Under the pieces are notes generated by a model. That model was given only the letters and a program-made list of their open reading frames with translations, ran no database searches and was not told the DNA's origin. Shown here one piece after another: positions 4,589-6,741 of a stretch of DNA of 22,234 nt (its first letter is position 1; every line of letters starts with the position of its first letter). Source of the DNA: a virus. Lineage: Duplodnaviria; Heunggongvirae; Uroviricota; Caudoviricetes. The position numbers and the translations under genes are program-made. The DNA lies in the IMG/VR virus record IMGVR_UViG_2718218227_000001; one strand, 5' to 3'.

Positions 4589-5059
4589 ATGTTATTTATT
4601 TTCTTGTCAGGACGACAAAATTTCACTATTGCAAGGATGCATATTATGGACAAAACAAATATTAACTTAATGGAAAGGTATCTTCTTCTGCTTGATCGAT
4701 TCGTTGATAAACTCGCTGAATCAGGTTTCTCAGAGCAACGAATTATCGAACAATCATATCTTTTTTGTGCAGGATTTTATATCAAATACCAGAGTGGTAT
4801 AGAAAAAATGACCTTCTCCAACAGGGAGGTTGTTTTAACCTTTCTGCTACTTTCATATTATAGTCATATAAATAAACTGGATGATGATTTGATCAACAAA
4901 GAGCGTATGAAGCATGTATGTTCTTCATTGATTAACTTTATAGTCAGTAATGGTAGCCGAACAGAGAAAGTCTATGCTAATGAGAAAAGGAAATATGAGG
5001 CTTCAACTCTAAAAAGAGAATTATCGAAAAAGGATAAAAGGAAAAGATATAGGTTGTAG
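4589..5059 (+). CDS. Hypothetical protein (cargo of the recombinase element); start uncertain
   Basis: ORF in AT-rich DNA on the same strand as the recombinase operon. Alternative starts at 4637 and 4646 (AGGA 9 nt upstream of 4646). Lys/Arg-rich C-terminal tail. No family recognised. Confidence 0.4.
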   Translation: MLFIFLSGRQNFTIARMHIMDKTNINLMERYLLLLDRFVDKLAESGFSEQRIIEQSYLFCAGFYIKYQSGIEKMTFSNREVVLTFLLLSYYSHINKLDDDLINKERMKHVCSSLINFIVSNGSRTEKVYANEKRKYEASTLKRELSKKDKRKRYRL

Positions 5060-5454
5060 TGTTTGTATGATTTTCATTAGACTTACTTAATCTATAGTCT
5101 AAATTTTAATATTAGATTCGTAAATCTATAATTCCATGAATCTAATTAATGCTTAAAAGCATCCTCTAAGATGCTTTTACTGTTACCATGCATACATACC
5201 CAGAACCTTTAACAAACGATAATAGAGGGGAGTTGTGTATAACAACTCCCTGACCTTACTAAGGTTAGCGATGTTATTCAGCATCATTCTGTCAAAGATT
5301 TAATTTCTTTGAAAAATACTAATTCTACCCCTTAAGTTAATAACTTCTGCTTGATCGTGTATTTTGGTAAGTTGGAGTACAATTTTTTGATTGGATCGTC
5401 AATAAGAAAAAGCTAGAATCCTTAGAAGGACATAGATTTTCATAGGGTTAAGAT

Positions 5455-6741
5455 ATGACGATTGCGAAGGATAGTTCGACTGATGAAATCATTCATGGAA
5501 ATGATCTCCGTGGAATGGATGATTTTTACATTAAGACAACGAGTTTTGAATGCCCATACGAGCCTTGTAAAATTAAAGCCACACCTTGTAGTTTTACTAT
5601 GAAACATGTTAATCAATCATATTTCAGATATGGCGATAAACATAAGGATGGATGTGGTATTCATGATCCAAGATATAAAAACAATCATACTTCAAATGAC
5701 GAAAGAAAACATAATTCGCCACCTGCTCCGGTTATATCACTTTTAAAAATTGATGTGAAACCAAGAGGTGGTGTTAAAAATGCCAGAAATATTAAAAATG
5801 AAAATCACAAGGATGAAAAAAAAGGTAATGAACATCCTGTATCTTCATCAAGTATTAAGCCAGTCGTTGACTATTACATAAATAATAGCAATCATAATGA
5901 ACAGCTATCAATCCCTCCATATGGCACGCGATCTTATAAAGATACATTTCAACTTATTTTTTACAAAAACAACATACGTTATTACAAACCTGCTATTTAT
6001 TATGGTGTAGCCCAGTCTAATATTCGTCTGCATGAAGATTCAGATAAACATTGTATTACTTTCCTCGCAAGGGATAAGAAAACCCAAAAACCATTTACGC
6101 TTGAAATTGATGTTTCTGACTGGAATAAAAGTCAGAAGGATGTGTTTTGGAAGGAATATGAAAAGCAAAGGAAGGAAGCTGATAGGTATTATAAGGGGCT
6201 TAAAGATAAAAGGAATGCTAAAAAATACTTGACGGTTTTCTTTTTTGGGATGCCGGATGAAAATGATAAGTTTCTATTTAAGACAAACCACTTTAAATTA
6301 GTATATGTGGCTTTCTTGGGTAAATTTGAAAGCTCATATAATGATAGTAATTATTACATTGAAAATGATCTGTCTGTATCATCATTGAATGAACAACCCA
6401 TTTCATTATCTGATATAGACCATAAAAATCATGAATATAATATTGAAACTTCATTAGATTTTAGTTCTCCTTTGCCAGAGCCAGAGCCAGAGCCAGAGCC
6501 AGAGCCAGAGCCAGAGCCAGAGCCAGAGCCAGAGCCAGAGCCAGAGCCAGAGCCAGAGCCAGAGCCAGAGCCAGAGCCAGAGCCAGAGCCAGAGCCAGAG
6601 CCAGAGCCAGAGCCAGAGCCAGAGCCAGAGCCAGAGCCAGAGCCAATAAGATCCTCTTTAAAGGAAAATACTGAGACTGTAGAAATGAACAGTAAAGTTT
6701 GGGGGAGGCTGAAAAAGATAATCACTTTCTTTAAAAAGTGA
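5455..6741 (+). CDS. Hypothetical protein with N-terminal Cys cluster and a C-terminal (Pro-Glu)~28 repeat spacer
   Basis: 428-aa ORF. N-terminal CPYEPC...C...C cluster; uninterrupted PE dipeptide run encoded by the hexamer array at 6475..6645; short basic amphipathic C-terminal tail. No family recognised. Confidence 0.55.
6475..6645. repeat. Perfect tandem hexanucleotide repeat (CCAGAG/GAGCCA)n, about 28.5 units, inside a coding region
   Basis: Directly visible: 171 bp of uninterrupted 6-bp units. It is open in several frames on both strands (PE on the plus strand; GS and LA on the minus strand), which explains the artefactual minus-strand ORFs 6429..6725 and 6461..6646. Confidence 0.95.

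Follow-up and report, generated by a model that had tools for sequence, protein, structure and literature searches.

What does the DNA behind a multi-integrase operon encode? The question is raised by a 22,234-nucleotide stretch (IMG/VR virus record IMGVR_UViG_2718218227_000001, hereafter the window), in which an operon of recombinase genes is followed directly, on the same plus strand, by two conserved open reading frames (ORFs), ORF5 and ORF6. The original prediction, made from the sequence alone, took the two for unknown adaptive cargo and a candidate undescribed module. We found that there is no undescribed two-gene system here: ORF5 is a backbone gene, and ORF6 an orphan, long-form relative of Avs8B. 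Escherichia coli O157:H7 chromosomes, for example those of strains EC4115, EDL933 and Sakai, contain a stretch identical to the window, bounded by ypjA, an autotransporter gene, on one side and ssrA/smpB on the other. The literature on ECs3507, ECs3508 and the neighboring Z numbers yielded nothing relevant.

Sequence comparison places ORF6 in the Avs8B family

ORF6 (Sakai ECs_3507; 5455..6741, plus strand) encodes 428 amino acids and is assigned to the Avs8B / PD-Lambda-4_B family by PADLOC, profile and pairwise matches. Pfam, NCBIfam and PHROGs contain nothing specific for it, and for those collections the earlier statement that no motif could be placed is correct. It does not extend to PADLOC, where ORF6 residues 151-284 match the C-terminal half of the PD-Lambda-4_B model with E = 1.9e-7. 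Matches to Trypan_PARP, TonB and DnaX were discarded as low-complexity artefacts of a Pro-Glu repeat. An exhaustive profile search built on 11 close relatives recovered 221 clusters at 50% identity, mostly full-length proteins of 290-450 amino acids, and a further search with the family profile, this time word-indexed, contributed hardly any additional members. PD-Lambda-4_B is matched by 107 of the 110 family members sampled. A Pfam scan found no family common to these 110 sequences; one of them had a CoiA_N match (E = 0.007), a faint echo of the likeness of the N terminus to CoiA that we did not count as evidence. The family profile had no match among PDB sequences.

PD-lambda-4 (Vassallo 2022) is now named Avs8 (bioRxiv 10.1101/2025.07.02.662641). 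In that system Avs8A, a STAND NTPase of ~1280 amino acids with an Mrr nuclease, senses the major capsid protein and is encoded adjacent to Avs8B in the same operon. Avs8B has no recognizable homology, is dispensable for defense against lambda and confers none when present alone, the activity being that of Avs8A (bioRxiv 10.1101/2025.07.02.662641). The canonical Avs8B, P0264, matches PD-Lambda-4_B with E = 4.7e-189; its gene lies 28 nt downstream of that for a 1284-residue protein matching PD-Lambda-4_A end to end, in an Enterobacter island abutting smpB/ssrA. ORF6 is collinear with P0264 over its full length, with 22% identity across 314 alignment columns that cover ORF6 residues 1-289. The two proteins match the same PADLOC model and have in common the invariant Cys/His/Cys residues and a core of two domains, and ORF6, like the Avs8B of Avs8, is found on an AT-rich mobile island at the ssrA hotspot. 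Unlike the 304-residue Avs8B, ORF6 continues into an acidic spacer made of repeats and ends in a cationic helix, and its PADLOC score is weak and confined to half of the model. It also has no neighboring Avs8A: the largest ORF in the window is 543 amino acids, and the equivalent stretch of EC4115 contains nothing above ~620. Therefore, ORF6 belongs to the Avs8B protein family and not to the Avs8 system. Judged by these comparisons, it is a stand-alone, long-form and distant member of the family.

This assignment gives an identity to a gene that is found in essentially every E. coli O157:H7 genome and has hitherto been listed only as "hypothetical". It also indicates that the Avs8B family, with at least 221 clusters at 50% identity, no Pfam entry and many unrelated defense and relaxase neighbors, is not specific to Avs8. 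We considered a secreted or surface-exposed virulence protein as another identity for ORF6 and found it unlikely, given the hydrophilic N terminus, the lack of a signal peptide and the wide distribution of the family in non-pathogens.

Predicted architecture of ORF6

The N-terminal Cys cluster noticed in the original prediction is real. Across 110 homologs of ~20% identity, C33, H63 and C67 never vary and C38 is retained in at least 90%, conservation well above chance, and ORF6 carries the conserved Cys...Cys...His...Cys signature found at the N terminus of Avs8B proteins. AlphaFold2 run on the 110-sequence alignment gave a model with a predicted local distance difference test score (pLDDT) of 88.3 and a predicted template modeling score of 0.86; an alignment of 11 sequences gave a pLDDT of 68. 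Residues 1-70 (5455-5664) are modeled as a small, beta-rich domain that bears the invariant Cys/His residues, a predicted zinc ribbon. They are followed by a basic, disordered linker (residues 71-130; 5665-5844), which includes a conserved NSPPAP...SLL strand, and by a barrel resembling the oligonucleotide/oligosaccharide-binding (OB) fold (residues 131-304; 5845-6366), in which a helix precedes the beta-barrel and a long helix (225-248) lies between strands. The conserved body spans ~304 amino acids.

All structural neighbors of the ORF6 model are OB folds, and most bind single-stranded DNA (ssDNA), such as RPA, Pot1/TEBP, Stn1/Ten1, SSB, the AIM2 HIN domain and LEF-3. The core has an isoelectric point of 9.1 and a net charge of +11, and aromatic residues make up 18% of the barrel. 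From the model, it is reasonable to infer that the ORF6 core binds nucleic acid. The predicted likeness to OB-fold ssDNA-binding proteins (bacterial SSB, T4 gp32, RPA70, Mcm10) extends from the barrel, with its long helix between strands 3 and 4, to the zinc element, the basic and aromatic-rich surface, the disordered linker and a short, conserved C-terminal tip. With a confident prediction of its zinc-ribbon/OB architecture, and with its recurrence near many unrelated defense systems and relaxases, the Avs8B family poses a well-defined question of function.

Beyond the core, ORF6 continues with an acidic stretch, a (Pro-Glu)28 spacer of net charge -28 and a terminal helix. The spacer, correctly recognized in the original prediction as a long Pro-Glu segment, is encoded by a perfect hexanucleotide array, (GCCAGA)28.7, detected with Tandem Repeats Finder at 6474..6645 (plus strand). 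This variable-number tandem repeat is probably a published locus for multiple-locus variable-number tandem repeat analysis of O157, with VNTR-9/Vhec4 and O157-10/TR2 as the candidates. In O157 the array differs solely by multiples of 6 bp, with nine lengths among 20 listed genomes, and ORF6 ranges from 401 to 452 amino acids across NWU_3, EDL933, Sakai and EC4115. The spacer thus becomes longer or shorter without loss of the reading frame. We rejected the idea that ORF6 is a decaying pseudogene, since the gene is intact in all annotated copies seen and repeat changes are always in frame. Several ORF6 relatives have repeat linkers such as PE, PQ or AEV, which probably explain why many database entries are marked "partial".

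The terminal helix (6697..6738, plus strand) is cationic and amphipathic, a candidate tip for membrane targeting or partner binding, and it recurs in 53 long forms, defined here as family members of 350 amino acids or more. The C-terminal 24 residues of those 53 proteins have a median hydrophobic moment of 0.60 and a median net charge of +4, compared to 0.40 and 0 for the 78 short forms; internal linker windows of the long forms have a median moment of 0.34.

ORF5 is linked to a mobilization cassette

ORF5 (Sakai ECs_3508) is a basic protein of 137 amino acids (isoelectric point 9.5) encoded on the plus strand. The start at 4589 corresponds to the longest possible ORF. An ATG at 4646 has an AAGGA Shine-Dalgarno sequence 9 nt upstream, RefSeq calls a 137-residue protein from this codon, and distant homologs likewise begin MDK or MNK. 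For these reasons we favor the later start, and the gene is likely 4646..5059.

A word-indexed search returned more than 340 clusters of ORF5 homologs, and among the 120 matches listed identity was 79-99% across the Enterobacterales. At every intact locus examined, ORF5 is followed after ~59 bp by a convergent gene for a protein of 22x amino acids, a relaxase gene (PF03432) and a gene for a protein of ~133 amino acids. This arrangement accompanies three different integration modules, one of which lacks the gin recombinase operon. In Klebsiella variicola 342 the gin proteins are 53-70% identical to those of the window, compared to 88% for ORF5, 67% for the 222-residue protein, 73% for the relaxase and 92% for the 133-residue protein. 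In E. coli TUM9812 there are no gin genes, their place being taken by one integrase and a replication protein, and the identities are 64% for ORF5, 54% for the 222-residue protein, 54% for the relaxase and 67% for the 133-residue protein. ORF5 identity therefore follows the relaxase cassette and not the recombinases. These comparisons argue that ORF5 is a backbone gene of the mobilization cassette and was never cargo.

Like relaxase-based mobilization cassettes of integrative mobilizable elements, ORF5 always stands beside a PF03432 relaxase and small accessory genes, on islands at tRNA, ssrA or autotransporter-flanking sites. It differs from such cassettes in being convergent to the relaxase genes, in its absence from PLSDB plasmids and in matching none of the described families of relaxosome accessory proteins; profile searches gave no match in Pfam, NCBIfam, PHROGs, PADLOC or PDB sequences either. 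From linkage alone, we infer that ORF5 may be an accessory or regulatory factor for mobilization. In O157 the gene is orphaned. A truncated IS30 at 7169 marks the loss of everything past the DNA that carries ORF6, which makes ORF5 a stranded remnant.

ORF5 and ORF6 occur apart

Comparison of the element of strain MIN10, which is free of ORF6, with the intact, ORF6-bearing element of strain NWU_3 located the boundaries of the DNA that carries ORF6. Similarity stops exactly at the ORF5 stop codon and resumes ~15 bp before the stop of the 222-amino-acid gene, which defines a 2.07-kb insert. The insert holds the 395-bp gap between ORF5 and ORF6, ORF6 itself and a convergent gene for a BamE-domain lipoprotein (Sakai ECs_3506; 6817..7119, minus strand; Pfam BamE, E = 2e-6; phrog_3135, a phage family of unknown function, E = 5.7e-17). 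The BamE-like gene accompanies ORF6 in near-identical element copies only. Its G+C content is 43% vs 32% for ORF6, and for this reason the insert looks composite. At the same locus, the chromosomal bamE gene is found a short way past smpB.

Both genes are present in 314 of 5426 E. coli genomes, ~300 of these at 99% identity or more, so that they represent essentially one element copy. In ~240 E. coli genomes an ORF6-like gene of ~67% nucleotide identity is present and ORF5 is not; the reverse, ORF5 alone, holds for ~120. Both figures were estimated from bands of identity and from rows sampled at even spacing. Near-identical copies of the gin, ORF5, ORF6, BamE-like and relaxase genes are found in Enterobacter, Pantoea and Xenorhabdus. 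A deeply diverged lineage, with gin proteins 28-45% identical, is present in Pantoea ananatis, Erwinia and P. brenneri with a swapped gene order: ginD comes first, followed by an ORF6-like gene (52-65% identical) and then by an ORF5-like gene (29-32% identical).

The question whether the two genes are conserved as a pair thus has a divided answer: the pair recurs in two diverged element lineages, yet each gene usually occurs without the other. Because each is so often found alone, ORF5 and ORF6 do not form an obligate module. We think it very unlikely that they are a functional two-gene unit of defense, toxin-antitoxin or similar type carried as island cargo. Their adjacency, shared direction and joint presence in near-identical Escherichia, Enterobacter, Pantoea and Xenorhabdus elements would suit such a unit, as would their recurrence in the Pantoea ananatis / Erwinia / P. 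brenneri lineage. However, the ~240 genomes with a lone ORF6-like gene lack gin as well as ORF5, and the similarity between elements breaks at the ORF5 stop. ORF5 co-varies with the relaxase cassette, other members of the ORF6 family have different neighbors, and 395 bp with a terminator-like hairpin separate the two genes. Separation in hundreds of genomes argues against the proposed undescribed two-gene module. Cargo, the other part of that proposal, is an apt description of ORF6, which is true variable cargo within the 2.07-kb indel and belongs to a family catalogued in a database of defense systems. Adaptive cargo does not fit ORF5, which is conserved with the relaxase cassette in different gin lineages and even where gin is missing.

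The 395-bp intergenic region

The gap between the two genes (5060..5454, plus strand), which forms the left edge of the 2.07-kb insert, had been described as structured, and it does fold better than all 100 of its dinucleotide shuffles (z = -4.25). It contains several perfect hairpins of 8-11 bp, with examples at ~5155-5178 and ~5228-5250. The simplest reading is that a terminator-like hairpin after ORF5 (~5155-5178) is followed by junction sequence and then by the ORF6 promoter and leader. Across genera, the final ~100 nt ahead of ORF6 hardly vary and are probably its promoter and 5' untranslated region.

This folding and the near-invariant end could also be expected of a structured regulatory RNA or a recombination site belonging to the module, but we regard either as highly improbable. 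Rfam gave no family match at E ≤ 0.1 (best E = 0.11, far below gathering scores), and the sequence is single-copy, confined to the insert and found solely alongside ORF6 in the 314 genomes. A comparison of six copies revealed no compensatory changes. The Pantoea GD03673 copy lacks 96 bp (~5188-5283), about a quarter of the gap and two of its hairpins, and P. dispersa disrupts another hairpin, again with no compensation. Moreover, the gap is AT-rich, and AT-rich sequence is often palindromic at terminators and junctions.

The recombinase operon and the element that carries both genes

The recombinase operon (1..4548, plus strand) is a genuine and already published GInt ginABCD operon, so that the multi-integrase setting was read correctly. 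Its ginA-like (1-1206) and ginB-like (1196-2521) genes have Phage_integrase domains in Pfam, the ginC-like gene (2518-4149) is recombinase-like, and a small fourth gene is ginD-like (4150-4548); all are on the plus strand, their stop and start codons overlap or abut throughout, and the operon is further identified by a match to NF041502. The last two genes are the ginC-ginD synteny block listed as ECH74115_RS19505/RS19500 (EC4115) and ECs_3510/ECs_3509 (Sakai) by Idola et al. 2023 (Additional file 10). That study gives a figure of 7.5% of Escherichia replicons, with which the 391 of 5426 genomes matched here agree.

GInts are defined by a gin operon followed by cargo and a short AT-rich 3' end, by imperfect flanking direct repeats and by circular excision that requires all four gin genes (Bardaji 2017; Idola 2023). 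The window has the three recombinase-like genes and the small fourth gene with overlapping ends, and its cargo starts after ginD. Neither the AT-rich 3' end nor direct repeats are present in the window, where IS30 truncates the element at 7169. An intact Klebsiella relative does have an AT-rich right end, but no clear direct repeats could be resolved there. Unlike described GInt islands, the O157-type family brings its own relaxase cassette, and this cassette, with ORF5, also accompanies a different gin lineage and a single-integrase element. The "cargo" beside a GInt operon can therefore be a mobilization cassette, which bears on the spread of GInt islands.

An 8,762-bp segment, 99.97% identical, is precisely inverted within the same flanks in K. 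variicola 342 vs a metagenome contig. The inverted 8.76-kb unit extends from ~165 bp upstream of ginA to the AT-rich end and contains the gin operon, ORF5, a 221-amino-acid gene, the relaxase gene and two small genes. It occupies 4196-12957 of locus L017 and 3037-11798 of locus L018, both relatives of window 1-5059. The inversion suggests either excision followed by re-integration in reverse orientation or site-specific inversion at the element ends, and as an indirect sign it points to site-specific recombination at the ends of the unit. Because the inverted segment includes the gin operon, ORF5, the 221-amino-acid gene and the relaxase gene, ORF5 and the position of ORF6 fall inside the GInt unit. 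The original description of both ORFs as cargo is right to that extent, in that they lie within DNA that moves with the gin operon.

Neighborhoods of Avs8B-family genes

Members of the family were found directly beside Avs8A, QatABCD, SIR2-HerA and DUF6161 with a Ymh-family protein; beside HsdR fragments with McrBC; beside an 1831-amino-acid helicase; and beside BrxR with HmaA. At the three loci examined, the lone ORF6-like gene belongs to an island with a P4 integrase, where it is flanked by a NERD/UvrD helicase on one side and by QatABCD with a CBASS-like pair on the other. About 39 mobilizable Vibrio plasmids of the pVA1 type carry members in their transfer region, and one member adjoins a MobQ relaxase in a Yersinia ssrA island. 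No relative of ORF6 was found in 50,697 phage records, and Enterobacterales plasmids in PLSDB contained no family match save one chromosome-like 502-kb record. What these neighborhoods share is mobile DNA rich in defense genes, and no partner is constant among them.

Islands at the ssrA/smpB hotspot hold three different genes of the family: O157 ORF6, the canonical Avs8AB of Enterobacter, and an ORF6-like gene of Yersinia pseudotuberculosis, the last being the one that adjoins the MobQ relaxase.

Possible functions of ORF6

The explanation that we favor, and to which we give about an even chance, is that the region is what remains of a mobilizable GInt, with ORF5 as a backbone remnant and a stand-alone, insert-borne, Avs8B-like ORF6 as a tethered accessory that binds nucleic acid. 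The element would originally have consisted of the ginABCD operon followed by a mobilization cassette, and the truncation associated with IS30 at 7169 would have spared only ORF5, the first cassette gene. ORF6 would have arrived, together with the unrelated BamE-like lipoprotein gene, on the 2.07-kb insert that separates ORF5 from the cassette gene after it. The zinc ribbon and OB barrel of ORF6 would bind nucleic acid, most likely single-stranded, and the rigid Pro-Glu spacer and terminal helix may anchor ORF6 at the membrane or on a partner. ORF6 would then be a self-contained accessory or sensor, carried by mobile elements and defense islands beside any other systems, and not a dedicated subunit of any single one. 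A nucleic-acid-binding accessory protein of mobile elements is our best guess for ORF6, with low confidence.

Several points weigh against this explanation. The sole experimental datum on the family is negative, Avs8B having no role in lambda defense (bioRxiv 10.1101/2025.07.02.662641). The recurrence of the pair, with its order swapped, in a deeply diverged lineage may reflect some functional link between ORF5 and ORF6. The neighborhoods are a sample of about a dozen contexts and not a test for statistical enrichment, and the C-terminal helix could be a protein-docking tip instead of a membrane anchor.

Two other functions were weighed for ORF6. ORF6 is predicted to combine an OB-like barrel and a zinc site with a disordered linker and a tip at its end, an arrangement like that of SSB and gp32. 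It could be an SSB-like conjugation or establishment factor, comparable to the products of leading-region genes, that coats or protects transferred ssDNA close to a membrane transfer channel. Relaxase genes stand beside ORF6 or its relatives in the O157-type element, in the Pantoea/Erwinia lineage and in the Yersinia ssrA island with MobQ, and the Vibrio pVA1-type plasmids carry relatives in their transfer region. Nevertheless, we consider this role unlikely. Most of the members sampled adjoin defense genes, with no relaxase within 8-10 kb; short forms lack the tail; and the Enterobacterales plasmids of PLSDB gave no match apart from the single chromosome-like record. The defense-rich neighborhoods and the inclusion of the family in PADLOC would suit a single-gene, abortive-infection type of anti-phage protein, which would sense phage nucleic acid and damage the membrane with its cationic amphipathic helix. 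The AT-rich ORF6 gene lies on mobile DNA, and long forms of the family do end in such a C terminus. Against this, Avs8B alone gives no defense against lambda (bioRxiv 10.1101/2025.07.02.662641), ~60% of family representatives have no tail, and a single helix of 14 residues would be a weak effector; we therefore judge this function improbable.

A broader and more speculative proposal is that Avs8B-like proteins, ORF6 included, might be widespread and unrecognized stand-alone sensors or guards of mobile elements, in which the zinc-ribbon/OB core detects foreign or transferred single-stranded nucleic acid. In long forms, a spacer whose length is adjusted through hypervariable in-frame repeats would keep the protein at the membrane, and the proteins would act in trans with whichever defense or transfer system lies nearby. 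This is a long shot, but if it were true, action in trans would explain why Avs8B is dispensable in an Avs8 assay with a single phage.

Genomic setting of the window

G+C content is 31-33% across the first 6.7 kb of the window and 43-57% in the prophage DNA downstream. A truncated IS30 copy lies on the minus strand (7169..7910), identified from annotation and from IS30 matches that start at 7169. Comparison with the intact arrangement in strain NWU_3 showed that this fragment cuts the element off, with loss of the 222-amino-acid gene, the relaxase gene and the right end. The GInt remnant is, by these comparisons, an element distinct from the prophage remnant, which it abuts at the IS30 fragment. 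The Sakai reference annotation files window 1-7168 (ECs_3506 to ECs_3514) within "prophage Sp17; lambda-like phage", and as a result of this placement the gin recombinases are read as prophage integrases.

The interval from 7169 to 20906 consists of the truncated IS30, a lambdoid prophage remnant and then type III effector genes. The prophage remnant encodes an HNH endonuclease with an AP2 domain (8177-8824) together with NinG, a phosphatase, an antiterminator and lysis genes. The effector genes are espW (17596-18654), a DUF1076/NleG-like gene (18733-19383) and espM2 (19566-20156). EC4115 carries an IS1203 copy at this locus that the window lacks, and the tmRNA gene occupies window 21175-21537.

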